A DNA stretch of 64,000 nt from a virus, in the IMG/VR virus record IMGVR_UViG_3300020005_000004, positions 4,336 to 68,335 of that record; one strand, 5' to 3'. Below, in pieces: positions 2,340 to 54,754 of this stretch (positions within the stretch are counted from its first letter, which is position 1; every line of letters begins with the position of its first letter). The position numbers and the translations under genes were made by a program. The notes under the pieces were generated by a model, which had not been told where the DNA came from, made no database searches, and worked only from the letters and a program-made list of their open reading frames with translations.

Positions 2340-2562
2340 AAAATTAAAGGATCAGGCAAAGTTCAAACTTTCAAAAAGAAGTAAAGTTATTTATACTAAA
2401 CAAACCAAGTGGAGAAGATCCGGAGGGTTGATGGCTTATGTCTTTACTTCTGATTCAAGCGGATTGACTTTTAAACGGGTGGGAAGTGTGAAAGTATGGC
2501 TTGTAGAGTTCATGGTAAATAAATCAACTGGATCAACGGTTGCAAGAAAACAAAAGAAATGA
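2320..2562 (+). CDS. Basic hypothetical protein
   Basis: ORF overlapping neighbours; absent from copy B. Confidence 0.5.
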   Translation: MTQTTLRKLKDQAKFKLSKRSKVIYTKQTKWRRSGGLMAYVFTSDSSGLTFKRVGSVKVWLVEFMVNKSTGSTVARKQKK

Positions 2563-3137
2563 TTACTGAAAAAGCGTTTAATGATTCAGCTACACTTTTA
2601 GGAGTAGAACCGGCAACAATCAAAGCGGTGGCAGAAGTTGAAAGTAAAGGAAGTGGATTTCTACCAAGTGGGCATCCGGTTGTACTTTTTGAGCCTCATG
2701 TCTTTTGGGCAGAACTTAAAAAGCGTGGAATTGACCCCAAAATGATCACAGGGGCTTCAGACATCCTTTATGAGAAATGGACAACAGGTAAGTACGGGAA
2801 AACTTCAGCCCAACCTGAACGCTTAAAACGGGCAATAGCGATAAGCAAAGATGCAGCCCTTTCTTCGGCAAGTTGGGGCAAGTTTCAAATAATGGGGTAT
2901 AACTACGGCCTTGCCGGATTTTCAGACGTTGATTCATTTGTTGCAGCCATGCACATTGACGAAGATCAGCACCTTAATGCCTTTATAAATTTCGTTAAGA
3001 ATAAGAACTTGGTTGATGAACTTCAAAGAAAAGATTGGGCGGGGTTTGCTCTTGGTTACAACGGTTCAGGATATAAGCAGAATAAGTATGATGAAAAGTT
3101 GGCTACTGCGTATAACAAGTTTAAGGGATCGCTTTAG
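2559..3137 (+). CDS. Endolysin, N-acetylmuramidase (DUF3380 family)
   Basis: AVAEVES.G, LFEPH, SASWG.FQIMG.N and YNG..Y..N.YD motifs. Confidence 0.9.
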   Translation: MITEKAFNDSATLLGVEPATIKAVAEVESKGSGFLPSGHPVVLFEPHVFWAELKKRGIDPKMITGASDILYEKWTTGKYGKTSAQPERLKRAIAISKDAALSSASWGKFQIMGYNYGLAGFSDVDSFVAAMHIDEDQHLNAFINFVKNKNLVDELQRKDWAGFALGYNGSGYKQNKYDEKLATAYNKFKGSL

Positions 3138-3152
3138 TTTCTACTTCCTTTC

Positions 3153-3284
3153 TTAATTAAAAACATGAAGCACTTTATCCAAGAATAAAAACATACCGTA
3201 AGCGCATAGCGTTCCAAGTATAAAGGCTATATATCCTTTTATCATTGTTTTTTGTAGGTTATTCATTCTACGATCCTTTTTCAT
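3153..3284 (-). CDS. 43-aa membrane peptide (not in ORF track)
   Basis: MKKDRRMNNLQKTMIKGYIAFILGTLCAYGMFLFLDKVLHVFN preceded by AAAGGAGG. Confidence 0.5.
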   Translation of the reverse strand: MKKDRRMNNLQKTMIKGYIAFILGTLCAYGMFLFLDKVLHVFN

Positions 3285-3303
3285 GTGTTCCTCCTTTGGG
3301 GTT

Positions 3304-3711
3304 TTATAGATTGTTTTGTTTTTTAAAATCTTGCCATTGTCCCGCTATTTGTTCTGCTGTAAACTCTCCTGTTTTATAAAACGAGTGCATATTAAAAATC
3401 AATCCTTTCAGTCTTTCCTTCTCTGCTTTTAGTTCCTCTATTGATAAATCTCTATGAAGTATAGCTTTTGAATATTTGCTTTTCCATTCCTCTATTTGTT
3501 TGGATTGTTCTTCGGCAACTTTTCTATAACTCATTGCGGTTCGTTCCCAAGTTTCGGCATGGTCTTTCAATTCTTCACACTCCTTCTCTTTCTCCTTTAA
3601 TGAGGATTGAAGGGCGGTGATTTGGTCATCTTTATTACCAAAATATTTATCAAGTGCGATTGACCAATCGGTTATGCTTCGGTAGTCTTTGCTTTGTGGT
3701 ATGTCTGACAT
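3304..3711 (-). CDS. Early coiled-coil hypothetical protein
   Basis: Shares LQSSL.EKEKEC.ELK and QSKQIEE with 50297..50854. Confidence 0.7.
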   Translation of the reverse strand: MSDIPQSKDYRSITDWSIALDKYFGNKDDQITALQSSLKEKEKECEELKDHAETWERTAMSYRKVAEEQSKQIEEWKSKYSKAILHRDLSIEELKAEKERLKGLIFNMHSFYKTGEFTAEQIAGQWQDFKKQNNL

Positions 3712-3714
3712 AGT

Positions 3715-4005
3715 TTATAATTTATTTTCTTTTTGATATTGCTGCCATCTATACCCCGATATTTCCTTATCGGCAAGCGGATATATAATGTTATAATTAT
3801 CCTTAACTTGTCTTTCTAATAATAATTTTATCCGGGCATTCTCCTTTTCCAATTCTTCCCGCCCATCGGTTGCAAGTTGGTAACCGGAAATAAAGGCTCT
3901 TCTACTTGCTGCGTTTGCATCATATTCACCAATTACTCCCGCTTCCATATCAACAGGGAATAATTCTTTTGCCTTATCCATTATCGGTTTCGGTATAGTT
4001 GACAT
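3715..4005 (-). CDS. Early hypothetical protein
   Basis: Shares MSTIPK and QLATDGREELEKE with 50297..50854. Confidence 0.7.
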   Translation of the reverse strand: MSTIPKPIMDKAKELFPVDMEAGVIGEYDANAASRRAFISGYQLATDGREELEKENARIKLLLERQVKDNYNIIYPLADKEISGYRWQQYQKENKL

Positions 4006-4010
4006 TGTTT

Positions 4011-4274
4011 TTATTTTTGGTTTGATTTAGGTTTCTTTTTTGGTGGAATCATTTTTAGTTCATGGCTATATGAAGCACTATTAATATCCCACTTTACATC
4101 ATGCGTCTTGCCGTCTACGTTCATCGGATGAATAATAAAATGGTCTTTATCTTGCATACCAACTCTAAACTCAATTATTCCTTGTGCGTAATACTCTTCA
4201 AGATACTTACACAGCTTACGGCCTATTCTATCCATAGCCATGTCTTTTTTTATTTTATCTGGTATTGTATTCAT
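4011..4274 (-). CDS. Hypothetical protein
   Basis: Tightly packed leftward ORF with A-rich start. Confidence 0.6.
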   Translation of the reverse strand: MNTIPDKIKKDMAMDRIGRKLCKYLEEYYAQGIIEFRVGMQDKDHFIIHPMNVDGKTHDVKWDINSASYSHELKMIPPKKKPKSNQK

Positions 4275-4310
4275 AATTTTTATTTTTTAAGACGGAAGCG
4301 GTTTAGAGAT

Positions 4311-5216
4311 TTAGAGTTTATTTTTCCTTTTGAACTTTTGCCAAGAATCTTCTTTGTTTTCAGGCCATTCAACTCGTTTTACTTCATGTTCAATCAACCC
4401 CTTCAATCTTTCAACTTCCTTTTTCAACTCCTCACAGTCTCGGTGGGCAGATAATCTTTTTATTAACTCCTTTGCCCTTGCAACACATCTTTCTATTTCT
4501 TCATAGGCGATTCCTTTTACGCTGCCGCCATCATAATTCTTTTCATGCAATAAATGTTCAGATGCCCATATCAATATTTCCAAAACTGTTTTTGTGTTGA
4601 ATGGTTGGTCATTATCAAGCGGCAACTCCTCACAGTCTCGGTCACCTGTGCGTATCTCTGATTGACTTGATTCGTTTGGGATAATATATTTTTCATCAGT
4701 TGGGATGCATTCTTCTTTTGTTGCTATTAATGAAATGCCGTCTGTTCTATCCCAAACATAATAATCATCACCGTCAATTTTATACAACTTTCCTATTGTT
4801 AAATAGTCTCCTACTTTTGGCTCTCGGTCACCTGTGGGGGAGGGGGAAGGAAGGCACAAATCATTAACTTTTTTATCAATGGTAAATTGAACATATTCCG
4901 TCATGTGAAACCACCACAGCCACCAACTATACATTCGCTCCTGAATAGGCCAATTACCATCTCCTTTTTTTACGTCAGGAACAAACCTTCTTTGATAATA
5001 ATCCTGTTGGTTGATGCAATATGTTTTAAAAGAAATCAAATCACCAACAGAAAGAAGCATGAGATTACCACCAAGTATTATATTTTCTTTTTCAATCAGA
5101 GAAGCGCAAATTCCGTCTGAAGATTTTGGATAAATATTACTCATATAATTTTTATTTTCTTCTTTTTCTGAAGAAGTAGCACAGGGTTCTATGGCCTTTT
5201 CTTTTTTATTATCCAT
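4311..5216 (-). CDS. Mosaic early protein with internal repeated junction motifs
   Basis: IEPCATSS, PSPTGDRE, TGDRDCEEL and RDCEELKKEVERLKGL segments. Confidence 0.7.
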   Translation of the reverse strand: MDNKKEKAIEPCATSSEKEENKNYMSNIYPKSSDGICASLIEKENIILGGNLMLLSVGDLISFKTYCINQQDYYQRRFVPDVKKGDGNWPIQERMYSWWLWWFHMTEYVQFTIDKKVNDLCLPSPSPTGDREPKVGDYLTIGKLYKIDGDDYYVWDRTDGISLIATKEECIPTDEKYIIPNESSQSEIRTGDRDCEELPLDNDQPFNTKTVLEILIWASEHLLHEKNYDGGSVKGIAYEEIERCVARAKELIKRLSAHRDCEELKKEVERLKGLIEHEVKRVEWPENKEDSWQKFKRKNKL

Positions 5217-5670
5217 TATGGTATTTTTTAAATAGTTCAGGCCATCTCTTGCCTCTTTTTATATCTGATACTGTACTTGGGTCAAGGTTATATCCTTTTG
5301 CGATTTGCTTATTTGGTACACCTGTTTTCAACAGGTCGTATATTTCTAACACTTTAGCTTCGGAAAGTTTTGACCTGTTGTGTGATTCGCCTTGTTTCTT
5401 AGCCTTCAATTTGGTTCTTATACTTTCATTAAAATCATACTTACGATGACATGAAGTGCATAGTTGTAAATAATCTTCAGGATTTGAAGAGTACTCGTGG
5501 CCTTCCCTTAAACACCATTCATACCTTTTAGCCGTTGTTGATTTACAATGCTCACATTTAGCCGCATTACCATAATTATTAATAATGCTTTTGTGAAACT
5601 TGTTATGTTTCCATTTTGGTATGTTGCCGACCATTTTCATATTACTCATTATTTTCGTCAAGCCATTCAT
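5209..5670 (-). CDS. HNH-like endonuclease with C-terminal HTH
   Basis: C..C...RYEW and LCTSCHRKYD; GESHNRSKLSE..V and STVSDIKRGKRW; real start may be a downstream Met. Confidence 0.7.
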   Translation of the reverse strand: MNGLTKIMSNMKMVGNIPKWKHNKFHKSIINNYGNAAKCEHCKSTTAKRYEWCLREGHEYSSNPEDYLQLCTSCHRKYDFNESIRTKLKAKKQGESHNRSKLSEAKVLEIYDLLKTGVPNKQIAKGYNLDPSTVSDIKRGKRWPELFKKYHNG

Positions 5671-5875
5671 AAACTTTTAATTTTTTAGGCAACCCTGTAT
5701 AAGAATCGTATTGCGATGGATGCTCCCAATGTTGCAAATTCCAAACCGACCCAGTATTCCAACACCCTGGTTTATCATCTTCATATCTTACTTTGACATG
5801 ATAATTTTTTCTAACTTCTGGCAACCGATCTGAGCATTTCACCCATCTGCATCCCTGCCTATTATTATTTTCCAT
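5642..5875 (-). CDS. DUF551-like small protein
   Basis: WVKCSDRLPE motif. Confidence 0.6.
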   Translation of the reverse strand: MENNNRQGCRWVKCSDRLPEVRKNYHVKVRYEDDKPGCWNTGSVWNLQHWEHPSQYDSYTGLPKKLKVYEWLDENNE

Positions 5876-5877
5876 GA

Positions 5878-6150
5878 TTAAAAGTTTGAGGGTTTATTTT
5901 TGAGTTGCTCATAATGAAGTTCGTAAGCGAGTTTGGTTAATGATTGTAATGCGCTTTTAAATTTTTCTTCAGTTGCTCGCCCTGCTAAATACTCTTCAAT
6001 CCAATACATACAATTTTGCATATACTCTATGGTTGTAGTTTCTTTTACAGGGGGTATAAATTTATATCTTGGCTTTAATGTTCTTGCTTTCTTTTTAAGC
6101 ATACTATCATAAAATCTTTGTTGGTCTGGTGTTCTCGCCGCCCGTTTCAT
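5878..6150 (-). CDS. Hypothetical protein
   Basis: Coupled leftward ORF. Confidence 0.55.
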   Translation of the reverse strand: MKRAARTPDQQRFYDSMLKKKARTLKPRYKFIPPVKETTTIEYMQNCMYWIEEYLAGRATEEKFKSALQSLTKLAYELHYEQLKNKPSNF

Positions 6151-6461
6151 ATACTTGGTTTATTTGGTAGTGGCATTGATTTTAATCTTTCTAAATATTT
6201 TATCACATTCCAATAAGCTATATCCATGTCAGTATGGTTTTCGGAATTTGCCGTAACCCATGTTTTCAATTCTGCAATTAAATCTTCAACCCTCGTCAAT
6301 CCCTGCCTATTGAGGGAGGCGGCAAACATGGCATCAATTATCGCTTGGTAAACATTTGGTGTCGTTCCTTTGCATCTTAGCCAATCCCAATGAGGAACTT
6401 CAATAGCCAAAAGAATTGATTCCAATTCGTCATATTTTTTATCTTCAATAGTAGGTGTCAT
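6147..6461 (-). CDS. Hypothetical protein
   Basis: MTPTIE start shared with 52699..53082; ASLNRQG shared with 52156..52695. Confidence 0.65.
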
Positions 6462-6979
6462 AGTCTTTTATTGTTTGTATCGTTAAAATTCAATCTTGCA
6501 AATTCTCCATAATACTTTATTGCCGCTTTATCGTATGCTTTTGCAGCTTCTTCTTTAGTTGCGAAACATCCCAAATGTATTTGATTGCGCTTGTAGCCTA
6601 TTTTTGCTGACCATGTTTTACATCTGGCATCTTTACATATTCCTTTAAAACCAAGTTTATTTTCTTTAGTCTTACTACGATTTGCCTGATTTTGGCCATT
6701 GGTTGCTTTCCTTAGATTTGATTTTTGATTATTTAATCCATTTAGGTCTCTATGATCTACGGCTATTTTATTACCTTTTAATTTCATTATTTCTCTGTGC
6801 ATAAAAACCTTTCTTCTTTTAACGTTTGGCAAAATAGAACACCTATAAGCATAATCACTCGTTCTATTTTTAAACCTTGTTATGTGCCAATTAAATTGAT
6901 TTAAGTATTCATAATCTTCATCATCAACAAGTATTTCAACTGCTGCGTATTTTTTAGCGAATGACAGTATTTTTTTCAT
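6458..6979 (-). CDS. HNH-AP2 homing endonuclease
   Basis: [31 protein letters not shown]...EEAAKAYD; start set at MKKIL. Confidence 0.88.
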
Positions 6980-7259
6980 ACGGCTTTTTAAGTGTGAACA
7001 AAAGATATGATCCTTCTGTGTTTTTTGAAATATTGTACTTATAACCGAAAACCTCATTAAACAATTCAATTTTATCAGCCATTAAAATAGGTGAACAATC
7101 AACTTCAATTCCTATAATGTTCTCAGAAGGTGATTCACGGCGAATCCTTATTGTGTATCTGGAAAGGATTAAAGCCGATTGTAATACTTCGTAAGCAAGG
7201 TTACCCTTTAGAACGCTGAATGAATCCTGAACGCTTACGGTTGTTTTTAAATTTAGCAT
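6954..7259 (-). CDS. Hypothetical protein
   Basis: [10 protein letters not shown] start identical to 53392..53727, remainder unrelated. Confidence 0.65.
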
Positions 7260-7287
7260 GGTTTTAATTTTTTGGTTTGTTAATAAA

Positions 7288-7320
7288 AGTCGGAGCTTAC
7301 TTTCGATTCAGCCCCGAACT
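7288..7320 (-). promoter_or_regulatory. RNA hairpin with AAUCGAAAGUA apex in the leftward early transcript
   Basis: Same apex but a different stem at 53986-54012. Confidence 0.6.
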
Positions 7321-8015: not shown

Positions 8016-8906
8016 ATGAACGAATTAATTAAAATAACCGAATTTGCTCCGGTTGAAAAAAGGATGCAGGAAGCGGGTTTTTCTATTGAGAAGGTAAAAC
8101 AGGAAGTTTCCTTTGCCCTTCAGTTAATCAATAAGTCTGCACAACTTCAAAAATGCTCTAAAGAATCACTTCAGCAAGCAGTTTTAAACATTTCAAATAT
8201 TGGGCTTTCACTTAACCCTGCGGCAAAAGAGGCGTATTTAATACCAAGATGGAACGGGGCTTTAAAGATAATGGAGGCGAGTTTAGAACCTGGATATGTC
8301 GGGCTTGTTAAACTCCTTACAGATGCGGGATCGGTTAAGTCAATGGTCTGCCAACTTGTTTACGATGGCGATACTTTTGAAATTGACTTAGCTAATAATA
8401 TGCAGCCAGTAACTCACAAACCGGAACTTTCAAGGGCTAAGAAAGGGAATATCAAAGGAGCTTACGCTTTAGCTACGTTAATTGACAATACCCGCCAAGT
8501 TGAATTTATGGACGTTGAAGAAATTGATGGCATTAGAGGCCGTTCAGAGACCTATAAAGCCTACCTTGAAAACAAGATAAAATCCTGCACTTGGGTTTCA
8601 GACTACGGGGAAATGGCAAGGAAAACGGTTATAAAGAGAATTTACAAGTATTTGCCAAGAACCGAAAGGATGGATCAGATTGACGAGGCAATAAAACAGG
8701 ATAACTCAGATTTTACGGCTTCCGATTCTCAGGTTTACTATATCGAAAATTTACTGAATAATTCAACCTTAGAAGAAAGGCAGAGGGCGCAAATAGAAAT
8801 GGAACTTCCGGTTATGGGATCACAAAGGGCAAACGAAGTGATAAATATGCTTAAAATGAATCAGCAACTTTCAGATAAAGAAACATTAAAAAGGATTCAG
8901 TCATGA
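8016..8906 (+). CDS. recT: RecT-family single-strand annealing protein
   Basis: GLSLNP...AYLIP, GY.GL, GAYA and EMARKTVIKR..KYLP motifs. Confidence 0.88.
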   Translation: MNELIKITEFAPVEKRMQEAGFSIEKVKQEVSFALQLINKSAQLQKCSKESLQQAVLNISNIGLSLNPAAKEAYLIPRWNGALKIMEASLEPGYVGLVKLLTDAGSVKSMVCQLVYDGDTFEIDLANNMQPVTHKPELSRAKKGNIKGAYALATLIDNTRQVEFMDVEEIDGIRGRSETYKAYLENKIKSCTWVSDYGEMARKTVIKRIYKYLPRTERMDQIDEAIKQDNSDFTASDSQVYYIENLLNNSTLEERQRAQIEMELPVMGSQRANEVINMLKMNQQLSDKETLKRIQS

Positions 8907-9256
8907 TAATCCTTCCTGCACAACTTGACGGGCTTAGAACTTTAGCGGATAAAACCCTAAAGATAACTTTTGAAACTCAGGAGTTAAACCCGCAGGACCT
9001 TTTAGGTCTGATGGAAAATATGCACCAATTTGGCTACTTGGCTTTCAAAAAAGAACCATTCAAAGAAGATGAAAAAGAAATGCTCCAGGAGTTGAAATCA
9101 GATTTTGAATTTAAAGGAAAAACCAGTTCGCAAAGATTACGATCCGTACTCTATGTAATGTTTCAGAATAATAACGAGGGCTTTGATAGTTCGGTTAAAC
9201 ACTATGAGCATTGGATGGAAAGGATAATTACTCAAATGAAAACTAAATTACCCTGA
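8903..9256 (+). CDS. Conserved phage hypothetical protein
   Basis: KT.SQRLR.VLY motif. Confidence 0.65.
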   Translation: MIILPAQLDGLRTLADKTLKITFETQELNPQDLLGLMENMHQFGYLAFKKEPFKEDEKEMLQELKSDFEFKGKTSSQRLRSVLYVMFQNNNEGFDSSVKHYEHWMERIITQMKTKLP

Positions 9257-9627
9257 TGGCAAAAGTAAAATCATTAAAAGGGTTAAAGAAAAAAGCGATC
9301 ACCGTTTTTAATAAGTGGATTCGTGTAAGGGACAAAAACAAAGGCTGTATTTCCTGCGGTGGTGGCGTTCACAATGCAGGACATTTTTATCATGGTCATA
9401 TTTATTCAGCCCTTCAGTTTAATGAGGTCAATGTTCAGGGGCAATGCGTTCATTGTAACTTATCGAAAGCTGGGAATGAAAAAGGATTCAGACAAGGACT
9501 TATAAGACGTTACGGACAGGATAAAGTTGATCTGTTGGATTCAGCAGCAAGGCACAGAAAGGTTTGGACAGAAGTTGAATTAACTTTTATAATAAATCAT
9601 TACAAATGCCAGGAGTTATCAAATTAA
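9256..9627 (+). CDS. ninG: NinG/Rap-like recombination nuclease
   Basis: FN.WIR.RD...CISCG, AGH, F.E.N..GQC..CN. Confidence 0.85.
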   Translation: MAKVKSLKGLKKKAITVFNKWIRVRDKNKGCISCGGGVHNAGHFYHGHIYSALQFNEVNVQGQCVHCNLSKAGNEKGFRQGLIRRYGQDKVDLLDSAARHRKVWTEVELTFIINHYKCQELSN

Positions 9628-9800
9628 TAAAATGGGCTATGACAGTAAAAAAAGTTCATTACTATTCTACTAAAGAATGGAAGTCAATAGTGGAAAGTTG
9701 GATAAAATTATATGGTGATAGCATTGATACTTATTTTATTCACATAGTTCCAGACAGGCAAACGGATAGATTTTTAGAAACCAAAAACAAATCAAAATGA
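9606..9800 (+). CDS. Hypothetical protein
   Basis: VHYYSTKEWKS and YFIHIVPDR shared with 56617..56817. Confidence 0.7.
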   Translation: MPGVIKLIKWAMTVKKVHYYSTKEWKSIVESWIKLYGDSIDTYFIHIVPDRQTDRFLETKNKSK

Positions 9801-10270
9801 AGCTAATACCACTTACACAGGGGCAGTTTGCGATGGTTGACGATGATGATTATGATGAATTATCAAAGTTTAAATGGCAAGTATATACAAGCAAAAGACA
9901 TATCATGTATGCCATAAGAACTACTCCAGATGATAAAACTGTTTATATGCACAGGTCTATTTTGAAAATAACTGATCGTTATCTTTTTACAGATCATAGA
10001 GATCATAATGGATTGAATAACCAAAAAGATAATCTAAGAAAAGCTACAATGGCAGAAAATAATGCTAATAGAAGAAGGTTTAAAAAGGGTACATCAATTT
10101 ATCGTGGCGTTTGGTTTGATTCTTATTATGGCGTTTACAAAGTGCAAATATCAGAGAATGGCAGGAAGGTACATTTAGGCCGGTTTAAAAATGAAATTGA
10201 TGCGGCAAAAGCATATAATGAAGCGGCTATTAAATACCATAAAGAATTTGCATTTTTAAACGAAGTTTGA
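9797..10270 (+). CDS. HNH-AP2 homing endonuclease
   Basis: LTQGQFAMVDD, DHRDHNGLNNQK.NLR, HLGRF..E.DAAKAYN. Confidence 0.9.
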   Translation: MKLIPLTQGQFAMVDDDDYDELSKFKWQVYTSKRHIMYAIRTTPDDKTVYMHRSILKITDRYLFTDHRDHNGLNNQKDNLRKATMAENNANRRRFKKGTSIYRGVWFDSYYGVYKVQISENGRKVHLGRFKNEIDAAKAYNEAAIKYHKEFAFLNEV

Positions 10271-13468: not shown

Positions 13469-13864
13469 ATGCCAATAGACTACAAAGAATATCATCCTGA
13501 ATGGAAAACAAAGATTCGTCCTGATATTTTAGAAAGGGATAATCATTGTTGTAAATTTTGCAAAGTGAAAAACCACAGTATAATTCACAGAACAGGCAAA
13601 GGGATGAATGATTGGTTTTACTGGCCGGAAGGAATGGAAAGCGAAGCATGGACTTTGGACGGGTTAAAAAGCACAAAAATTGTTTTAACTATTGCACATC
13701 TTGACCACGACAAAACTAATAACGATTATGAAAACCTTGCAGCCCTTTGTCAAAAATGCCACTTAGGAATAGATTTAAAACATCACATGAAAAACGCAAG
13801 AGAGACAAACGAAAAGAAGAAAAAACTTCAAAGATTATTCGATGAAAGCAATCAGAATATATAG
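13469..13864 (+). CDS. HNH endonuclease
   Basis: C.FC, LTIAHLDH...N....NLAALCQKCH. Confidence 0.85.
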   Translation: MPIDYKEYHPEWKTKIRPDILERDNHCCKFCKVKNHSIIHRTGKGMNDWFYWPEGMESEAWTLDGLKSTKIVLTIAHLDHDKTNNDYENLAALCQKCHLGIDLKHHMKNARETNEKKKKLQRLFDESNQNI

Positions 13865-14280: not shown

Positions 14281-14574
14281 GTGAATAAAAAACCCCGTTT
14301 AGAAAACCTAAAACCCTTTAAAAAGGGACACGACGAAAGGCGAAACATGAAGGGTGCGCCAAAACTTCCAAACCTTGAAGAGTTAATGGCTGAAGTTTTA
14401 GATGAACAAAAAGACGGCAAAACGGCAGCGCAACAAATCTTAGCCAAACTGGTTGCAAAGGCAATTAAAGGAGACATAAGAGCCGCAGAAGTATTATTTG
14501 ATCGTGGTTATGGCAGGGCAAAACAGGCTATTGATTTAAACGTTAAAGAAACGGACGTTGATTTTACTTTCTAA
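14281..14574 (+). CDS. Terminase small subunit (DUF5681-like)
   Basis: NLKPFKKG...N.KG.P, A.KGD..A...LFDR.YG; coupled to TerL; GTG start inferred. Confidence 0.7.
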   Translation: MNKKPRLENLKPFKKGHDERRNMKGAPKLPNLEELMAEVLDEQKDGKTAAQQILAKLVAKAIKGDIRAAEVLFDRGYGRAKQAIDLNVKETDVDFTF

Positions 14575-15830
14575 TGAAGATAAAAACTCCCCAACTATCC
14601 GACTATCAGAAGCAAATGATAGACTCCCCTTTAAACACAATCACAGAAGCAGGGACTAAAATAGGCAAAACGGTTTCGCATATGTGGTGGTTATTCAGGG
14701 AAGCTCAACAACCCCATGTTCAGGTCGGTTGGAATTATTGGTGGGTTGCTCCAATCAATGAACAGGCTAAAATCGCTTTTAACCGTATTTGTGCTAAGAT
14801 TAAGGGCAATCCGAACTACACGATTTACAATTCCTCACCGTACACGATAGTGACCCCTAAAGGCACTAAAATCGTTTTCAGGTCAGGTGACGATCCTGAT
14901 TCACTTTACGGAGAGGATGTTTACGGGGTAGTTATTGACGAAGGATCAAGGATGAAGGAAGGTGCTTTTCATGCTATCCTTTCTACGACAACAGCGACAA
15001 ACGGACGAATAAGGTGTATAGGAAACATGAGAGGGATTGATAATTGGTACTATCAGTTAGCAAGAAAGGTTCAGGACGGACTTTTGCCAACTTGGGAGCA
15101 TTTTAAGTTCACGGCTGACGATGCGGTTAAAGCCGGAATACTCACACAAGAGAAAATTGATGAACAAAGGGCAATTTATCCGGAAGGGATATTTTTAGAG
15201 TTGTTCTTTTGCATACCATTCATCAATATGGGTAATAGGTTTGCTTTTTCTTTCAAGACAGATAAGCACGTTTCAGAAACAAAGTTCAATCCAGAATACC
15301 CGCTTTACCTTTCGTTTGACTTTAATCGTAACCCGATTTGTTGTGCAGTTTTTCAACACTACTCAGATAGGATATTTGGGATAGAATCTATCAAATTACC
15401 TAACTCAGATATTTACCGGCTTTGCGATACGATAAAAATGAAATATCCGAAAGCCCTTTTAATTGTCAATGGTGATGCAACAGGTCAAGCAAGTTCAGCA
15501 CTCGTAAAAGATAATTTGAATTACTATAAAGTGATCAGGACACAATTAAACCTTAGTCCTAATCAAATAAAAATACCTACGGTTAATCCTGGCATTGCAG
15601 AAAATCAGGTCTTGGTAAACTCAATGCTTGAGCATTATCGCATAAGTTTAGACCCTACTAATTGTGCTCCTCTCATTCACGATCTTCAGTTTGTGGAAAT
15701 GCTTCCTGATGGCTCAATTAAAAAGGGTGACAGGGAAGACCCGAACCAACAGGCAGACAGTTTGGATTGCTTCAGATATTACCTTAATGCAAATTTTAAA
15801 TGGTTTCTTAAAACTTGGCAAGGAAATTAG
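14574..15830 (+). CDS. terL: Terminase large subunit
   Basis: Walker A variant GTKIGKT, VIDE Walker B, SFDFN nuclease start, D..D..RY. Confidence 0.92.
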   Translation: MKIKTPQLSDYQKQMIDSPLNTITEAGTKIGKTVSHMWWLFREAQQPHVQVGWNYWWVAPINEQAKIAFNRICAKIKGNPNYTIYNSSPYTIVTPKGTKIVFRSGDDPDSLYGEDVYGVVIDEGSRMKEGAFHAILSTTTATNGRIRCIGNMRGIDNWYYQLARKVQDGLLPTWEHFKFTADDAVKAGILTQEKIDEQRAIYPEGIFLELFFCIPFINMGNRFAFSFKTDKHVSETKFNPEYPLYLSFDFNRNPICCAVFQHYSDRIFGIESIKLPNSDIYRLCDTIKMKYPKALLIVNGDATGQASSALVKDNLNYYKVIRTQLNLSPNQIKIPTVNPGIAENQVLVNSMLEHYRISLDPTNCAPLIHDLQFVEMLPDGSIKKGDREDPNQQADSLDCFRYYLNANFKWFLKTWQGN

Positions 15831-16372: not shown

Positions 16373-16540
16373 ATGACTGATGTAGCAATTATAAAAGAAG
16401 AAATTGAAAGAAGGATAAGAGAATATGAAAATACTGCTGAAGAATGTTTTCAGGAATTAGACAATGAAGAAAGAGGCAATGCTTATTTAGACAGGGCAGC
16501 GGAATTAAAATCACTACTTGAATACATCTACAACTTATGA
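16373..16540 (+). CDS. 55-aa acidic hypothetical protein (not in ORF track)
   Basis: ATG at 16373 after TACCTTAG; ATGA overlap with 16537. Confidence 0.6.
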   Translation: MTDVAIIKEEIERRIREYENTAEECFQELDNEERGNAYLDRAAELKSLLEYIYNL

Positions 16541-17184
16541 TTTGTTTCAATTTCGCTTCTCGCTCTCGACCTACCAAATTCTACGAATGCTTAGATAATA
16601 TCCGTCAATTCATTTCAGATAAAGATTATTTTGTACTTGCTAAACTTGATAATAACGATAGGGAAATTGAAAGCTACAAAGCAAGATTAAACGATTACCC
16701 AGAAGTTATTCCCGTCTTTGGGATCAGTCAAAGTAAGATTCATGCAATCAATAGATGGTTAGAAGGCGTTAATTTTGACATTCTTTGTAATCATTCGGAC
16801 GATATGTTTTTTATCAAGAAAGGATTCGACATGGTAATTAAAGAACATTGTACCGATGATACGTTTATACATTTCCCCGATGCCAAAACAACTTTATGCA
16901 CTTATTCGATCATGGATAAGATTTATTTCAGTAGATTTAATTATGTTTACAACCCGGCTTATAGAAATCTTTGGTGTGATAATGAAGCTATGGAAGTTGC
17001 AAAGAGACTCGGAAGATATAAGTTTGTTGATGAGAAAATATTAGAACATAGGCATCCGGCGAACGGTTTCGGAAGGCCGGATATGCAGTACAGGAAAACA
17101 GAGGCAACTTATCACATAGACAAAAGGACTTTTGATATAAGGGAACGAAATAATTTTGGATTACCAATAAAACAAACCACATGA
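16537..17184 (+). CDS. GT-A fold glycosyltransferase
   Basis: SRSRP, SKIHAINR, SDDM, WCDNE, EHRHP. Confidence 0.78.
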   Translation: MICFNFASRSRPTKFYECLDNIRQFISDKDYFVLAKLDNNDREIESYKARLNDYPEVIPVFGISQSKIHAINRWLEGVNFDILCNHSDDMFFIKKGFDMVIKEHCTDDTFIHFPDAKTTLCTYSIMDKIYFSRFNYVYNPAYRNLWCDNEAMEVAKRLGRYKFVDEKILEHRHPANGFGRPDMQYRKTEATYHIDKRTFDIRERNNFGLPIKQTT

Positions 17185-17546
17185 TACAAGAAAGATTAGT
17201 TAAACAACTACAAACGCAACTTAATAAAATGGTTGCCGATTACGAAGCCTTAAAGATTGAAATTGCATCAAAGCAGCAAGAATCAAGTCAGAAAAAACAG
17301 GCCATTAATAAACTGAAACAACAAATAGATGAAGCCGATAAAAAAAAGGAAATCTATGTCTCCGAACACGCTTTAGTAAGATATTTTGAAAGGGTTAAAG
17401 GTTTCGATATTGAAGAAATAAAAAAGGAAATACTTTCTGATAGCATAAAACAAATGCTTTCTGTTCTTGGTGGAACGGGGCAATACCCAAATGAAAATGG
17501 TTACGGGGTTATTCTTGATAACTTTAGGGTTACTACAATTATTTAA
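17181..17546 (+). CDS. Coiled-coil protein with SEHA..RY domain
   Basis: VSEHALVRYFER...VTTI motif. Confidence 0.6.
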   Translation: MIQERLVKQLQTQLNKMVADYEALKIEIASKQQESSQKKQAINKLKQQIDEADKKKEIYVSEHALVRYFERVKGFDIEEIKKEILSDSIKQMLSVLGGTGQYPNENGYGVILDNFRVTTII

Positions 17547-17555
17547 AACATTTTT

Positions 17556-17699
17556 ATGAAAATAATAATCTACATCATCGCACTAATTTTCTTTTGTTTC
17601 TCTTGCTATAAAGCAGTAGTACATGAAGATTTAATTGCTATTTTTTTCATGGTAGCGACAATCGCAATACTTAAATTAGGAGAGAATCGTCCGGCTTGA
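17556..17699 (+). CDS. 47-aa membrane peptide (not in ORF track)
   Basis: MKIIIYIIALIFFCFSC...; stop overlaps the next start. Confidence 0.5.
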   Translation: MKIIIYIIALIFFCFSCYKAVVHEDLIAIFFMVATIAILKLGENRPA

Positions 17700-18247
17700 T
17701 TTACAAACTCGCAATATTAATTTGTTCTTTGGAAGAAAGACAGGATAAACTTGCCCGACTGATAGAATCTATTCCTTCCCATCCTGATTTAATAATCATT
17801 CCAGAAGTGGATAACAGAGAAATAACCACAGGAGCAAAAAGGAACAAGTTATTACAAAGGGCTTTGGATATTGGGGCTGAATACGTTTCTTTTGTCGATG
17901 ACGATGATAAATTAGATATTGAGTATGTTGCTGAAATGATGAAAGCTATCGAACAAAAGCCGGATGCAATAGGTTTTAAAGGATGGATCACTTTTGACGG
18001 TAAGAATAAAACAGAATGGAGAATTTCAGTAAGATACCCTTATGAAAAGCGGGGAAATGTTTATCTTAGGTATAATAATCATCTTTCCCCAATAAAGACA
18101 GAATTGGCTTTGCAAATTAAATATCCTGATATTACTTTTGGCGAGGACTATGATTATGCTAAGAGGTTAAAGGAAGCGGGACTTGTGCAGAAGGAAGTAT
18201 TTGTAAATAAACATCTTTACCATTACGATTATATAACGAAGAAATGA
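17696..18247 (+). CDS. GT2-family glycosyltransferase
   Basis: GAKRNKLL, FVDDDD, FGED motifs. Confidence 0.85.
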   Translation: MIYKLAILICSLEERQDKLARLIESIPSHPDLIIIPEVDNREITTGAKRNKLLQRALDIGAEYVSFVDDDDKLDIEYVAEMMKAIEQKPDAIGFKGWITFDGKNKTEWRISVRYPYEKRGNVYLRYNNHLSPIKTELALQIKYPDITFGEDYDYAKRLKEAGLVQKEVFVNKHLYHYDYITKK

Positions 18248-18921
18248 AGCTGCAATTACCGAGTGTTACTTGTATGATAATTGACAGCGTAAACGCAAAA
18301 GGCGCAATAAATGTTTTAGAGCATTGTAAAAACCTTTGTGACTTCGGGGCGGTAAAACTTCTTACAGACATTGAAATAGATTACGAGCATAAAGTAACGA
18401 TCCCTAAACTCAATTCTTTAGTTGCTTATTCTATTTTTATGCTGACGAAGTGTAAAGATTACTTTGATACTGACCATGTTTTAATCGTTCAAAGGGATGG
18501 CTTTATTTTAAATCCTGAATCCTGGAATCCGGCATGGTTAGAATACGATTACATTGCTCCCTTGTTTCAGCAAATGGACAGAGTGGGTTCGGGTGGATTC
18601 AGTTTAAGGAGTAAGAAAGTAATGGAAAGGCTTGCCGAAATTACTCCAGAGTGGGATTGGTCGCAAGGGCAAGCTGACACGATTCAGAAGATAATGGGGT
18701 ATTATGAAGATGGCGTAATTAGCTTATCGGGGCAAGGATTTAATATTGCTCCATTGCACGAAGGGGCTAAATTTGCACAGGGGGGAAATGAGAATCTTGC
18801 CTACTATGTAGAAAAACCATTTGGTTTTCACAGAACTTCTCAGTACATTGACTTTAATACGGGACAGGTTAGTTCTTCTTATGAGAACTTTTTTCAGCAA
18901 TACGAATTAGAAATCAAATGA
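18244..18921 (+). CDS. DUF5672-like putative glycosyltransferase
   Basis: L.VQ.DG, YDYI.P, VG.GGFSLRS, ED, FGFH. Confidence 0.8.
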   Translation: MKLQLPSVTCMIIDSVNAKGAINVLEHCKNLCDFGAVKLLTDIEIDYEHKVTIPKLNSLVAYSIFMLTKCKDYFDTDHVLIVQRDGFILNPESWNPAWLEYDYIAPLFQQMDRVGSGGFSLRSKKVMERLAEITPEWDWSQGQADTIQKIMGYYEDGVISLSGQGFNIAPLHEGAKFAQGGNENLAYYVEKPFGFHRTSQYIDFNTGQVSSSYENFFQQYELEIK

Positions 18922-19061
18922 AAATAGAAGTAAGGTATAAATCTCAGGGTAAAGTAAAAGGGAAAACCTATGTCTATACTACAAACAGTTTTTTTAAATT
19001 CATATCAATTTGGTGGGTTGCAAGACGGAGCAAGGCCGAAGCGGTATTAACTTATTTCTGA
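18918..19061 (+). CDS. 47-aa basic peptide (not in ORF track)
   Basis: Start and stop both overlap neighbouring genes. Confidence 0.45.
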   Translation: MKIEVRYKSQGKVKGKTYVYTTNSFFKFISIWWVARRSKAEAVLTYF

Positions 19062-19918
19062 TGATTTACTTAGAGAAAAACGATATTCATTGCACTCTCA
19101 CGACATATATCTATTGTCATATGTGGATGCTTTGGTCATTTGAGCAGAGGGGTATCAATGATGTTTATATAAGTTGGCCTATTGGTAAATCGGTTAAATC
19201 TTACGAGGATAAAGATTGGTTTAATAATTGGGGTAATCAGTTTGAATGGTATTTTAATCAACCAAAAGGCTGTCACGATTATTGCACTAAAGCAGATGAA
19301 ACTTATACTTGGGAACATTGGATCGATCCGGTTTCACCTTCTTTCATGTCACAACCACTATCAGTAATAAAAGACTATTATAAAAAAAACCTACACTTCA
19401 ATGAAGAAACTAACAAAAGAGGTCAAGCCATTGTCGATAGATACAACATTGACTTCAGGAAAACTATTGGAATTACATGGCGAGGAACTGATATCTATCT
19501 TGATGGAAGGCCAAGAATCCCGATTGAAAGATATTTAAGATTCGTGGATGAGATTATGGAACGAAACCCAGACTTCAAAATTGCAGCAACTGCCGAAGAG
19601 GTTGGAATACTTGACCCGTTGCTTGCCCGATACCCCAATGCCTTTATTATAGAAGAATTTATTCAGGCTCCATTAAATTCAAAGAATAATCCAGAAAGGT
19701 TTTCTCCGGTTAGCGGTTACGAGAGGGGCTTGCAGCCTGTGTTAATGGTTTGGCTATTCAGTAAGTGTAAACATTACATTAAGAACAGAAGTTCAACAGG
19801 GGCGGTTGCAAGTTGGTTAAGCGATGGAAGGATAGTGAATATTGCACATGAAGAAACTTTATCTTATTTAAAAATGGACGATCAGGTAGAAATTGAAGGA
19901 ATAAAATATCCGTTATGA
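19061..19918 (+). CDS. NodZ/fucosyltransferase-like GT-B glycosyltransferase
   Basis: IGITWRGTD, AT.E, FSKC..YI...SS. Confidence 0.7.
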   Translation: MIYLEKNDIHCTLTTYIYCHMWMLWSFEQRGINDVYISWPIGKSVKSYEDKDWFNNWGNQFEWYFNQPKGCHDYCTKADETYTWEHWIDPVSPSFMSQPLSVIKDYYKKNLHFNEETNKRGQAIVDRYNIDFRKTIGITWRGTDIYLDGRPRIPIERYLRFVDEIMERNPDFKIAATAEEVGILDPLLARYPNAFIIEEFIQAPLNSKNNPERFSPVSGYERGLQPVLMVWLFSKCKHYIKNRSSTGAVASWLSDGRIVNIAHEETLSYLKMDDQVEIEGIKYPL

Positions 19919-20469
19919 AAGTAGTTAATTCAAGAGAAGAATATTTAAAACAACTATCATTAGAATCGGGGATAGGTTATTGCTCTTTTGCTGAATTGGG
20001 TGTATATCATGGTGACTTCTCGGAAATGATTTTAAAAACTATTAAACCGAGTTGGCTTTGCTTAGTTGATCCTTATAAGAACGGAGTAGAAAAATATAAT
20101 AACGGTTTATCTACACAATATTCCACAGATGAAGATTACGATAAGCTGATTAAGAGATTTCCTAAAGAGATTTTAAAAGGTCAGATTTCGGTTTATAAAA
20201 TGCCCTCATATAATGCCGTAAGTTGTTTCCCTGACTTGTACTTTGATTTCATTTACCACGATGCAAGCCATTTGAAAGAAGACGTGAAAAGGGATTTATG
20301 GGAATGGTTGCCTAAATTAAAACTTGACGGAGTAATGTGTGGCCATGATATGATTGAACACGAAGACTTCGGCGTAATTGATGCGGTTGAAGATTTCTGT
20401 AATCAGTTCGGATTTAAGATATTTCTATATAACAAAAACGGAGGCGATTACGCTTTAAAAAGAATATGA
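19915..20469 (+). CDS. Class I SAM methyltransferase (Methyltransf_24-like)
   Basis: ELGV..G, DFIY.DA.H, G..CGHD. Confidence 0.85.
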   Translation: MKVVNSREEYLKQLSLESGIGYCSFAELGVYHGDFSEMILKTIKPSWLCLVDPYKNGVEKYNNGLSTQYSTDEDYDKLIKRFPKEILKGQISVYKMPSYNAVSCFPDLYFDFIYHDASHLKEDVKRDLWEWLPKLKLDGVMCGHDMIEHEDFGVIDAVEDFCNQFGFKIFLYNKNGGDYALKRI

Positions 20470-21428
20470 ATAACTATTGCGTAATAACAACAATAAACAA
20501 ACCAACAAAAGCAGTTGAGGCTTTATATGAGAAGTTCGGGGAAAGGCTGATTGTTGTATTGGATGAAAAAAGCCCAAAGGATTGGCATTACCAAAAAGCT
20601 AATTTTATATTGTCTTACGGGAACAGAAATGGATATGCGCCAATGAATCACTATGCTCGTAAGAACTTAGGATATTTAAGAGCTATATCTGAAAAAGCTG
20701 ATTTAATCTATGATACAGACGATGACAACATACCAAATAAAGAATGGGGTTTAAGATTCAAAGAAACTAAAGCGAGTAAATCATTTGGCGAAGGTTGGTT
20801 TAATGCTTACGAGCCAATGACCCCGACAAAGATTTGGCCTCGGGGCTTCCCGTTGAATCATGTAAATAAGGGTAAAGAATTATTCGGGGCAAAAGAAGCT
20901 GTTGTTAGTTCTATTCAACAAGGGTTAGCAGATGGCGAGCCTGACGTGGATGCTATTTACCGAATGACGAACAATAAACCCAATGAGTTTAAATACGAAC
21001 GGTCAATTTATTTGGATAAAAATACTTGGTGTCCGTTTAATTCTCAAAGTACTTGGTGGTTTCCCGATGCTTACCCGTTAATGTATCTTCCGGTTAATTG
21101 TTCATTCAGAATGACAGATATTTGGCGTTCATTTGTGGCGCAAAGGTGTTTGTGGGAAATCGGGCAAGGGGTAACGTTTCATTCACCGAGTGAAGTTTAC
21201 CAAGAAAGGAACGAACATGATTTAATGAAAGACTTTAAAGATGAAGTTCCAGGTTATCTTTATAACGAAGAAATAGTTAGTATTTTAGGCAAGTTAACGT
21301 TAAGAGGAAGTATGGATATTATGATTAGGACTTGTTATGCCGCATTAATTAACGCTGATATACTGCCAATGGAGGAGGCTATATCATTAAACGCATGGTT
21401 AGATGACATTGCAAAAATTATACGATAA
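20466..21428 (+). CDS. STELLO/DUF288-like (GT75-related) glycosyltransferase
   Basis: VITTIN.PT, YARKN.GYL, DTDDDN, PDVDAIYR, FR.TDIWRS. Confidence 0.85.
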   Translation: MNNYCVITTINKPTKAVEALYEKFGERLIVVLDEKSPKDWHYQKANFILSYGNRNGYAPMNHYARKNLGYLRAISEKADLIYDTDDDNIPNKEWGLRFKETKASKSFGEGWFNAYEPMTPTKIWPRGFPLNHVNKGKELFGAKEAVVSSIQQGLADGEPDVDAIYRMTNNKPNEFKYERSIYLDKNTWCPFNSQSTWWFPDAYPLMYLPVNCSFRMTDIWRSFVAQRCLWEIGQGVTFHSPSEVYQERNEHDLMKDFKDEVPGYLYNEEIVSILGKLTLRGSMDIMIRTCYAALINADILPMEEAISLNAWLDDIAKIIR

Positions 21429-49514: not shown

Positions 49515-49707
49515 TATGAAATCAGGAGATTGGGTTTTAATAATGTTAGCCTTTTGCGTTACCGCTTCAATACTGATTACGGTTGCAGGGATAGTATTTA
49601 AGGGTAAAGAGGCAAATGAACATTCTGTGGTGATAAGGACGGCTTTGATTGATCTTCTTAAAGTAATTGTCGGTGGTGTCATCGGCGCAATAAGTTCACA
49701 TTTATGA
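49501..49707 (+). CDS. Small two-TM protein
   Basis: Counterpart of 2106..2339; true start probably ATG at 49516. Confidence 0.55.
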   Translation: MGGNNMKSGDWVLIMLAFCVTASILITVAGIVFKGKEANEHSVVIRTALIDLLKVIVGGVIGAISSHL

Positions 49708-51440: not shown

Positions 51441-51505
51441 CTTTATTTTTTTTATTTACTTCCTACTGCTCAATAATTCCCCCCGTCTAAAGACGGAAGC
51501 GGTGA

Positions 51506-54738: not shown

Positions 54739-54754
54739 AACAAACCAATTTAAA

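Follow-up and report, generated by a model that had tools for sequence, protein, structure and literature searches.

It has long been asked whether phage mosaicism arises at special conserved linkers, as the modular theory holds, or by random illegitimate joining followed by selection. For lambdoid phages, short conserved DNA between otherwise unrelated modules has been described as boundary sequences at which homologous exchange takes place, and such sequences have been reported missing at most mosaic junctions (PMC3029335). For T4-type phages, promoter early stem-loop (PeSL) elements have been described as multi-copy intergenic cassettes in a hyperplastic region of small orphan genes, and they were proposed to be preferred homologous-recombination sites that shuffle the genes flanking them (Arbiol et al. 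2010, PMC2839356); PeSLs are also the subject of Comeau et al. 2014 (PMC4122927). Here, we analysed a 64,000-nucleotide stretch of a viral contig (IMG/VR record IMGVR_UViG_3300020005_000004, positions 4,336 to 68,335; hereafter the window), in which two leftward operons of small genes, called copy A and copy B, share an ordered series of short, near-identical DNA pieces that we call anchors:
3153..~7700, minus strand: copy A operon, leftward small genes
50297..~53727, minus strand: copy B operon, leftward small genes

The intergenic cassettes among these anchors resemble PeSLs in copy number and genomic setting, and one cassette form has a stem-loop. They differ in lacking a sigma-70-type promoter signal, in belonging to a ~46-kb genome with a RecT/NinG module rather than to a T4-type genome, and in reaching into coding sequence on both sides; many anchors are intragenic, and the shuffling would be sub-genic and in frame. 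In comparison with the lambdoid boundary sequences, the anchors likewise separate otherwise unrelated modules; however, almost all gene junctions of the operon have one, others lie within genes, and dozens of variants share them.

Two further systems resemble the locus at the protein level. The gp38 adhesins of T2/T6-type phages are reported to have a strict order of short in-frame motifs between variable segments of a limited palette, with exchanges in or near conserved glycine-rich motifs that give chimeric proteins (Trojet et al. 2011, PMC3157838). As described there, gp38 is a single virion protein of one fold whose loops set host range, whereas the scaffold studied here spans about ten small non-structural genes with bodies that are domains or helical segments of differing folds; no Pfam or PHROG match to gp38 was found among the operon proteins. 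In phage lambda, the early leftward exo-xis region adjoins the recombination genes and encodes Ea22, in which a short N-terminus that varies is followed by a long coiled coil and by a C-terminal domain that is portable; in Stx phages ea22 is described as a mosaic gene, one variant of which carries DUF551, presented as a portable domain (PMC10834534). The operon studied here is similar in position and architecture, and its proteins probably also act as early accessory factors. On the other hand, homology to Ea22 is undetectable here, the Ead_Ea22 signature being unmatched by the coiled-coil proteins, and what is described there are three mosaic variants of one gene and not an operon-wide DNA anchor scaffold (PMC10834534). 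A limited literature search returned no description of an operon-wide, DNA-level anchor scaffold that reaches inside many small genes.

The window belongs to one contig of 68,335 bp, which contains ~1.5 tandem, diverged units of a ~46.3-kb phage-type genome; window position 1 corresponds to about 46319. In a BLASTN comparison of the window with itself, the conserved genes of the two units were 70-91% identical over hundreds of bases (endolysin, 83%). Each unit has a minus-strand block of small genes directly downstream of, and convergent with, the endolysin gene and divergent from the recombination/replication genes, and the number of genes differs between the copy A and copy B operons. The same comparison linked the two operons by 10 same-strand, collinear matches (copy A positions 3281-3313, 3401-3442, 3565-3623, 3842-3880, 3988-4025, 4276-4444, 4623-4650, 5837-5863, 6434-6479 and 7229-7264). 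Nine of them are 27-59 nt long with 88-100% identity (E values of 4e-6 to 9e-14), and the tenth covers 177 columns at 76%. No alignment was obtained for the DNA between the matches, and the anchor edges are abrupt, perfect identity giving way to random-level mismatch within 1-2 bases. Because such E values were obtained in a 64-kb self-comparison and all matches are collinear, the sharing is far beyond chance. Two kinds of anchor are present, gene-junction cassettes (about half) and in-frame pieces within open reading frames (ORFs); the latter set comprises QLATDGREELEKE, ITALQSSL.EKEKEC.ELK, IEELKAE.ERLKG, (TPSP)TGDRDCEELKKEVERLKG, ASLNRQG, NRQGCRWVK and IEPCATSS. In the order of copy A, with occurrence in sources other than this contig where determined, the anchors are:
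3281..3313, minus strand: junction anchor (..NL stop, AAAGGAGG, ATG), 33/33 nt identical to 50274-50306
3401..3442, minus strand: in-frame anchor IEELKAExERLKG, 93% identical to 50382-50423 and at least 88% in 15/22 other sources
3565..3623, minus strand: in-frame anchor ITxLQSSLxEKEKECxELK, 88% identical to 50483-50541 and found in 16/22 other sources
3842..3880, minus strand: in-frame anchor QLATDGREELEKE (QLATDG), 97% identical to 50667-50705
3988..4025, minus strand: junction anchor (..SNQK stop, A-rich spacer, ATG, MSTIPK), 38/38 identical to 50837-50874 and found in 20/22 other sources
4270..4313, minus strand: intergenic cassette, short form (ACCGCTTCCGTCTT, AAAAAATAAAAAT, ATG)
51459..51516, minus strand: intergenic cassette, long form, with an 8-bp hairpin (CUUCCGUC UUUA GACGGGGG)
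4395..4444, minus strand: in-frame anchor DRDCEELKKEVERLKGL, counterpart 51804-51881 in copy B, partial copies at 4623-4650 and 4822-4846
5164..5194, minus strand: in-frame anchor (S)IEPCATSSE, counterpart 52334-52365, codons identical in 3/3 copies examined
5837..5863, minus strand: in-frame anchor NRQGCRWVK, 27/27 identical to 52555-52581
6294..6324, minus strand: in-frame anchor ASLNRQG, codons identical in 5/5 copies examined
6434..6479, minus strand: junction anchor ahead of MTPTIE, four occurrences in all
7229..7264, minus strand: gene-start anchor (ATG and 10 codons), 36/36 identical to 53697-53732

The genes that these anchors join or divide are as follows:
3304..3711, minus strand: copy A, 135 aa, helical/coiled-coil, with anchors ITALQSSLKEKEKECEELK and IEELKAEKERLKG and the tail WQDFKKQNNL, stop
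3715..4005, minus strand: copy A, 96 aa, with MSTIPK start, QLATDGREELEKE anchor and the tail WQQYQKENKL, stop
4011..4274, minus strand: copy A, 87 aa (MNTIPD..), unique body, ending ..SNQK, stop
4311..5216, minus strand: copy A, 301 aa, IEPCATSS near the N-terminus, tail ..KKEVERLKGLI..WQKFKRKNKL, stop; downstream half of a split gene
5642..5875, minus strand: copy A, 77 aa, DUF551-like, starting MENNNRQGCRWVK; upstream half of the split gene
5878..6150, minus strand: copy A, 90 aa, without counterpart in copy B
6147..6461, minus strand: copy A, 104 aa, with MTPTIE start, ASLNRQG and the tail ..MPLPNKPSI, stop
50297..50854, minus strand: copy B, 185 aa, composed of MSTIPK, a body, QLATDGREELEKE, a FYREQTDKVREL..CQPLYDAI module, ITSLQSSLNEKEKEC, IEELKAENERLKG and a tail
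51729..52097, minus strand: copy B, 122 aa, carrying TPSPTGDRDCEELKKEVERLKGL (anchor 51804-51881)
52156..52695, minus strand: copy B, 179 aa, with a helical hairpin, ASLNRQG joint, DUF551-like beta domain, IEPCATSS joint and alpha/beta C-domain
52699..53082, minus strand: copy B, 127 aa, with MTPTIE start and a body unrelated to that of copy A

A preliminary description of this DNA, made from the sequence alone, had proposed that the 185-aa and 179-aa proteins of copy B are chimeras of motifs which copy A distributes over several genes. The ORFs, their motifs and the copy A homes of these motifs proved to be as described. The 185-aa protein begins with MSTIPK and carries QLATDGREELEKE like the product of 3715..4005, and shares ITxLQSSLxEKEKECxELK, QSKQIEE and ELKAExERLKG with the product of 3304..3711; the motifs of the 179-aa protein are found in copy A in 6147..6461 (ASLNRQG), 5642..5875 (NRQGCRWVK) and 4311..5216 (IEPCATSS). 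The anchors inside ORFs also keep frame as had been claimed, codon phase being equal in both copies for all five intragenic anchors. The further claim that the DNA between anchors is unrelated holds in so far as nothing aligns by BLASTN, and fails for some bodies that are diverged homologues at the protein level, the DUF551-like body and 12 of 29 N-terminal bodies (see below). Likewise, the proposed sub-genic assembly on fixed linkers agrees with the combinatorial and reticulate occurrence of bodies, whereas roughly one anchor in two is a DNA cassette at a gene junction and not a protein motif. For the suggested early role in host takeover or anti-defence, the analogy with the lambda exo-xis/Ea22 region speaks for an early accessory role, and family matches pointed to no function.

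To identify relatives, the endolysin was used as an anchor-independent probe, which gave 79 viral loci, three of them close (81-83% amino acid identity; contigs of 42-47 kb). Anchors with unrelated DNA between them were present in all three; the remaining 76 loci had endolysin similarity only. Close relatives of this phage type are found on contigs of 42-48 kb. Exact-match scans with the 27-nt core of the QLATDG anchor detected 5 viral contigs and 18 metagenome stretches, and scans of viral contigs with other anchors detected 3 (MSTIPK junction), 8 (ASLNRQG), 3 (NRQGCRW) and 4 (IEPCATSS); nine viral contigs were retrieved through anchors other than QLATDG. The QLATDG core lies inside an ORF, in the same frame, in 28/28 sequences (contig ends truncate three of these ORFs). 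Anchors that had not been used for retrieval were present at 88% nucleotide identity or more in 13-20 of the 22 other sources, many of which are too short to reach them. The preliminary description had suggested looking for the same linkers with other inserts, and in each relative that was examined the anchors are indeed joined to other bodies.

Proteins around the QLATDG anchor were collected from these loci and from a protein search (24 of 27 matches used), which gave 35 proteins, 29 of them distinct and complete. Cutting the 29 proteins at the anchors yields four slots, whose bodies form 15, 19, 7 and 12 similarity clusters. The N-terminal bodies outside the main cluster are unrelated, and lengths in slot S0 range from 31 to 133 aa. 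The N-terminal body of the copy B protein has a different continuation in L099 (L and P numbers denote loci and proteins of the collection), and the next body of copy B (..FYREQTDKVRELIFSRNDIGEPCQPLYDAI..) is joined to the common type of N-terminal body in P0002 and occurs in at least six other contexts (P0005-P0010). Thus, all four left/right combinations exist across the QLATDG anchor, and the bodies are combined in a reticulate manner. In addition, L087 and L089 have a long middle body in common, and their similarity stops exactly at DGREELEKE at one end and at SSLKEKEKEC|EELK at the other end; L094 and L097 have a common part only after ITALQSQ. The anchor tags also frame bodies of other kinds, both non-DUF551 bodies and HNH endonucleases, namely a 138-aa protein of L001 (MSTIPK, NUMOD4 and HNH_3) and a 205-aa protein of L002 that ends in WQQFKTENNL. 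The whole anchor series is found in one chain in P0060 and P0068, and motif order is fixed. Both copy B chimeras are best described as ordinary members of a combinatorial series. An AlphaFold model of the 185-aa protein (24-sequence alignment; mean pLDDT 84.9) has four long helices (residues 13-29, 32-87, 93-163 and 171-184); in this model the anchors QLATDGREELEKE, ITALQSSL.EKEKE, IEELKAENERLKG and TGDRDCEELKKEVERLK are placed inside a long helical rod, where in-register swaps would be tolerated. For the coiled-coil proteins and 20 family members, Pfam gave weak generic coiled-coil matches only, below cutoff, and Ead_Ea22 was not found; a likeness of a 140-aa body of L108 to a MazG-type pyrophosphatase was considered and was unsupported by Pfam.

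We consider that homologous exchange at the anchors among co-occurring relatives shuffles the accessory genes of this ~46-kb soil phage type, and assign this reading a probability of roughly 0.72 on the strength of sequence comparisons. The operon would then be a hyperplastic accessory block between the endolysin and the divergent recombination module, with genes assembled from exchangeable bodies of 20-130 aa parted by near-identical DNA anchors. As the anchors would be the sole sequence common to co-occurring variants, exchange between co-infecting relatives would resolve inside them and would swap, delete, duplicate or fuse whole genes and sub-genic modules, with reading frames kept open. 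The in-frame anchors are placed at flexible joints that separate autonomous domains (ASLNRQG, IEPCATSS) or within a helical rod, and copy A holds the same parts as copy B broken up, in part by an HNH gene at EWLDE|SIEPCATSS. The sequences themselves show the anchor scaffold, its uniformity as DNA, the reticulate combinations, the location of anchors at permissive sites, the HNH insertion at an anchor and the genes for RecT and NinG; that the exchange is homologous and resolves within anchors is deduced from them. We infer that exchange on these 27-59-nt homologies is catalysed by two proteins of the phage itself, the RecT-type annealing protein and the NinG junction nuclease, and free-standing HNH endonucleases could supply the double-strand breaks. 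Exchange on such short anchors is feasible because Rad52-like recombinases, including RecT, are reported to be efficient on short and diverged sequences, with ~30 bp given as the minimum for Red-beta, and small gene fragments are said to be exchanged more often than whole modules (PMC3945230).

Several points weigh against this reading. The crossovers are deduced from sequence, as is the role of the HNH endonucleases in exchange, including their putative target site, and PHROG and Pfam scans found no annealing protein at the position in copy B that RecT occupies in copy A. Retrieval by exact anchor matches forces identity at the probe, and the unbiased evidence comes from the other anchors and the five endolysin-linked genomes. 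Synonymous variants occur inside anchors (e.g. five DNA versions of ITALQS), so the constraint at the DNA level is not absolute. Between L090 and L091 the switch is at ..NGVIQDNP, which is not a recurrent anchor, as illegitimate recombination predicts. As mentioned, 12 of the 29 N-terminal bodies fall in one similarity cluster and are diverged homologues. The whole of the 77-aa protein of copy A (5642..5875) can be aligned to residues 39-114 of the copy B 179-aa protein (34% identity, E 3e-9), so the DUF551-like body is a diverged orthologue. Finally, all sequences come from short-read metagenome assemblies, the k=31 graph branches at anchors, and any single long-range combination could be mis-phased.

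The HNH endonuclease genes bear on the question of what maintains the anchors. Three are located within the operons:
5209..5670, minus strand: HNH endonuclease ORF within a net 458-nt insertion, with HNH/HTH PHROG matches
6458..7069, minus strand: AP2/HNH endonuclease gene (phrog_99, E 4e-39) that fills one scaffold slot
51135..51440, minus strand: HNH endonuclease gene (phrog_374/3377, E ~5e-39) between two intergenic cassettes
These genes are sporadic, each being found in only 1-2 sources and in differing slots. In copy B and L104, EWLDE-S-IEPCATSS is continuous (..GAATGGCTTGACGAA-TCC-ATAGAACCC..). In copy A, a net 458 nt are inserted between GACGAA and CCATAGAACCC with intact flanks; the intact anchor at this site is EWLDESIEPCATSS. 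The insert supplies the stop codon that ends the upstream half (77 aa) and the start codon of the downstream half (301 aa), an ATG that overlaps the stop of the HNH ORF. Judged by sequence, the copy A gene has been split exactly at the EWLDE|SIEPCATSS anchor by insertion of an HNH homing endonuclease gene. A ribonucleotide reductase gene of a T4-like Aeromonas phage has reportedly been split by a free-standing homing endonuclease gene ('genes in pieces'). The present case is similar in that the HNH ORF interrupts a coding sequence which relatives have in one piece, and the two halves are open with a new stop and start; what is split here, however, is a small accessory protein of several domains, at one of its domain joints, and the endonuclease activity is predicted. 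The 301-aa product contains three copies (some partial) of a (PSP)TGDR(D/E)CEEL linker, and ESM Atlas gave no lead for it (best feature score 0.82; own model pLDDT 0.52).

Four further HNH genes were noticed outside the operons (9797..10270, 13469..13864, 56886..57290 and 62930..63406), three of which are 39-42% identical to the AP2/HNH gene at 6458..7069; this resemblance accounts for an inverted 80-nt match (6680-6758 / 10069-9991). Such a load of free-standing endonucleases is unusually high for a 46-kb genome.

A stronger form of the exchange reading is that the anchors are maintained as exchange sites, the HNH endonucleases recognizing intact anchors and cutting endonuclease-free co-infecting genomes, after which RecT-dependent repair would copy the neighbouring body. 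We hold this to be doubtful. If it were true, the operon would be a self-shuffling, frame-preserving library of early accessory proteins, selected for evolvability against hosts or rival phages.

Illegitimate recombination followed by selection, which we regard as unlikely, would place junctions anywhere and retain in-frame survivors at tolerated places, with the anchors being leftover ancestral sequence. The switch between L090 and L091 means that at least one junction lies off any recurrent anchor, the mycobacteriophage literature describes most mosaic boundaries as lacking conserved sequences (PMC3029335), and the structure models suggest that anchors coincide with permissive places. Against these observations, identical junction positions recur in more than 20 independent sequences, and synonymous sites in anchors are more uniform than in a conserved gene. 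The fraction of identical residues that also have the same codon was 0.80 for ITALQS, 0.82 for EELKAEN.RLK, 0.93 for MSTIPK, 0.95 for SLKEKEKEC and 1.0 for ASLNRQG, NRQGCRW and IEPCATSS, compared with 0.607 (901/1485) for the endolysin of the same five genomes; anchor codons are thus more uniform than those of the conserved endolysin. The retention of junction cassettes whatever the frame (see below) also disagrees with illegitimate joining. Moreover, ASLNRQG is fused directly to CRWVK in the copy B 179-aa protein, P0007, P0060 and P0068. Several relatives have a gene with a helical N-terminal part and a DUF551 domain, followed by a gene of the form MENNNRQGCRWVKASERLPE..EWLDESIEPCATSSE.., and NRQG precedes a DUF551-type start in both. 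The fusion is what out-of-register exchange between two paralogous anchors would give, and fits homology-guided exchange better than random joining. In L104, a MENNNRQGCRW..IEPCATSS gene is found twice in tandem (233 and 180 aa) with different bodies, as unequal exchange between repeated anchors predicts.

It is also possible, and in our opinion slightly less probable still, that the anchors are conserved for expression (translation initiation or coupling, RNA stability or termination hairpins, or promoter cassettes) and that exchange is a by-product. A typical junction anchor runs from the final codons of one gene through its stop, a short, unstructured, A-rich spacer and an ATG into the next gene, of which it includes the first 5-10 codons, and such stop/ATG overlaps and unstructured leaders favour a role in expression. 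The ACCGCTTCCGTCTT cassette occurs in 26 copies in 16 sources, 1-3 per source, and in 13/22 other sources; it is followed by either AAAAAATAAAAAT-ATG or TAGACGGGGG, the latter completing the 8-bp hairpin. The hairpin of the long form (-15.1 kcal/mol, z -2.1) likewise speaks for an expression function, as does the coupling of regulation with shuffling proposed for PeSLs (PMC2839356). This hairpin is without a T-run, and the short form is unstructured. However, between 3000 and 8100 sigma-70-type promoters were not enriched (27 found vs 20.6 +/- 5.6 expected), with none on the cassettes and other promoter types outside the scan, and neither were terminator-like sites (2 vs 3.4 expected). An expression function also leaves the mid-helix intragenic anchors unexplained. 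The two readings are compatible, and a role in expression does not exclude exchange.

The junctions are read differently in different sources. At the MSTIPK junction, the upstream ORF ends in ..NQK and a stop in 11/16 sources, and 5/16 are without such an ORF. At the MTPTIE junction, the upstream gene ends in ..TNNKRL and a stop in copy A and in ..TYKQ and a stop, in another frame, in copy B and L002, and in L094 the sequence lies beyond the upstream stop. The junction anchors are thus conserved as DNA regardless of reading frame. Three consecutive copy A genes have the paralogous starts MSTIP, MSDIP and MNTIP. The junction at 3281..3313/50274-50306 has a strong Shine-Dalgarno-like AAAGGAGG ahead of the ATG, a signal that the A-rich leaders of the other gene starts lack; in copy A, a 43-aa hydrophobic ORF (3153..3284) begins at this junction.

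Ordinary divergence, in which the operons would be orthologous gene for gene, with fast-evolving bodies and motifs under purifying selection and without module exchange, has very little left in its favour. It would account for the diverged DUF551-like body, for the clustering of 12 of the 29 N-terminal bodies and for P0036, a full-length homologue of the 179-aa protein (43% identity) with diverged linker residues. It is largely refuted by the reticulate combinations with all four left/right types present; in addition, one slot holds bodies of differing length and kind (DUF551, helical, HNH endonuclease), the conservation of anchors extends to synonymous sites and holds across reading frames, and gene number is unequal in the two copies.

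The 179-aa protein illustrates how far divergence and domain shuffling coexist. The copy A 77-aa protein scores 21.9 bits against DUF551 (PF04448; E 3.4e-4, gathering cutoff 22) and the copy B 179-aa protein has no match, while the ASLNRQG-WTRVEDGLPE..MPLPNKP proteins of L105, L107 and L108 all score above the cutoff (26.0-32.1 bits). None of five other proteins with NRQG(C/K..)RW starts matched DUF551 at E <= 0.01. A sensitive search with the 179-aa protein gave 79 matches at E <= 1e-3, and its three parts also occur separately: the DUF551-like middle is N-terminal, internal or C-terminal in proteins of 94-889 aa, the C-terminal part stands alone behind other sequences in P0045, P0063, P0089 and P0104, and P0029 has the middle and C-terminal parts without the N-terminal part. 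It is thus a common three-domain architecture and, as far as sequence comparison indicates, an ordinary multi-domain protein with joints frozen only within this phage group. An AlphaFold model (44-sequence alignment; mean pLDDT 87.6) has three units: residues 6-38 form a helical hairpin, 44-110 a beta-rich domain (block means 87-97) and 117-178 an alpha/beta domain (block means 88-95). ASLNRQG (36-42) is located at the first joint and IEPCATSS (113-120) in the sole confidence dip (block 111-120, mean pLDDT 65). Foldseek found no PDB match to this model at E <= 0.001 (best 0.22). With regard to the check proposed earlier, whether inserts are autonomous domains, the parts of the 179-aa protein do model as separate folded units, whereas the anchors of the 185-aa protein lie in a helical rod.

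With regard to whether the combinations are real, identical multi-anchor proteins were obtained from independent assemblies (L091=L098=L101 and L085=L096). Among 14 soil/freshwater runs listed, the copy A operon was detected in two samples besides the possible source, with 0.92-0.96 and 0.28-0.41 of its words, and k=31 contigs of four runs (X3, X5, X6 and X7) were mapped to it. In X3, an independent soil sample, the whole copy A operon is tiled at 100% identity, single contigs spanning 2916-4025 (four anchors) and 5165-6472 (two anchors). Other X3 contig ends coincide with anchors (4025/3996, 4424, 5193/5165, 6472/6443 and 7264/7235); therefore, the assembly graph branches there and co-occurring variants share the anchors. 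In X5, X6 and X7, many contigs are confined to anchors or run from anchor to anchor, with little or no cover on most copy A bodies. Summed contig depth in the anchor bins was ~13-114 in X5 and X6, a measure that cannot rank parts and only hints that many contigs share the anchors. Anchors and flank diversity thus belong to the samples and not to one assembler. Usual reads are longer than the 27-59-nt anchors. That assemblers merely switched between co-occurring strains at shared k-mers, producing chimeras only in silico, is highly improbable, since such switching, although the contig itself passes from one diverged unit into another, X3 contigs stop on anchors and several metagenome contigs (L085, L087) end near one, cannot create shared anchors or the flank variety seen in many samples, and the same multi-anchor combinations recur in independent assemblies, with all copy A bodies at 100% in X3. 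The layout of the contig itself, A then B, more likely reflects an assembly path round one strain and then into another than a tandem of two related genomes.

None of these alternatives covers the recurrent junction positions, the synonymous uniformity and the frame-independent conservation together. Other mechanisms were considered and rejected. For a diversity-generating retroelement, reverse transcriptase was absent among the 85 + 21 proteins scanned, and the variable bodies differ in length and are unalignable. For an integron- or shufflon-type site-specific system, no dedicated recombinase was found and the anchors differ in sequence from one another. Programmed frameshifting was dismissed, as all ORFs are open without recoding.

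The gene content of the window was assigned by PHROG and Pfam scans, in which family matches of the operon proteins gave no function and no integrase match was found among the window proteins. Features outside the operons include:
2559..3137 and 49704..50273: N-acetylmuramidase endolysins
8016..8906, plus strand: RecT-family single-strand annealing protein (108.5 bits), divergent from the copy A operon
9256..9627 and 56261..56632: NinG/Rap junction nucleases (NinG, 90.9 bits)
14574..15830 and 61670..62914: terminase large subunits
within the window: a tape-measure-like protein and a virion protein
In the place of RecT, after the divergent control region, copy B encodes a 232-aa protein unrelated to it (54686..55384; phrog_862, function not assigned there, no Pfam match), which may represent a non-orthologous replacement of the annealing protein. 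A GerE/LuxR-type helix-turn-helix protein (54383..54595, 33.2 bits) heads the rightward genes of copy B, and a counterpart was not noticed there in copy A. Glycosyltransferase and (DNA) methyltransferase PHROG matches were found just past the terminase (16537..17184, 17696..18247, 19915..20469, 21403..21951 and 21948..22577), and this gene run (16537..22577) may be a DNA or surface modification module.

BLASTN in distant mode with 2300-8000 gave zero matches to 50,697 deposited phage records; the anchor core was found in 0 stretches of reference prokaryote genomes, and a terminase-based scan of these genomes gave 25 pattern matches, of which 0 were confirmed as relatives. The operon region was found in no RNA run.

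Taken as sequence evidence, this locus appears to be a clear population-level case of linker-guided gene and domain shuffling. In a natural soil population, ordered linkers are dense and extend into genes, and dozens of combinations occur; together with the recombination module and the numerous homing endonucleases of the phage, this makes the question of how phage mosaicism arises directly testable. It also suggests a natural rule set for in-frame module swaps in small phage proteins, in which domain joints and helical rods would be the places where bodies can be exchanged.

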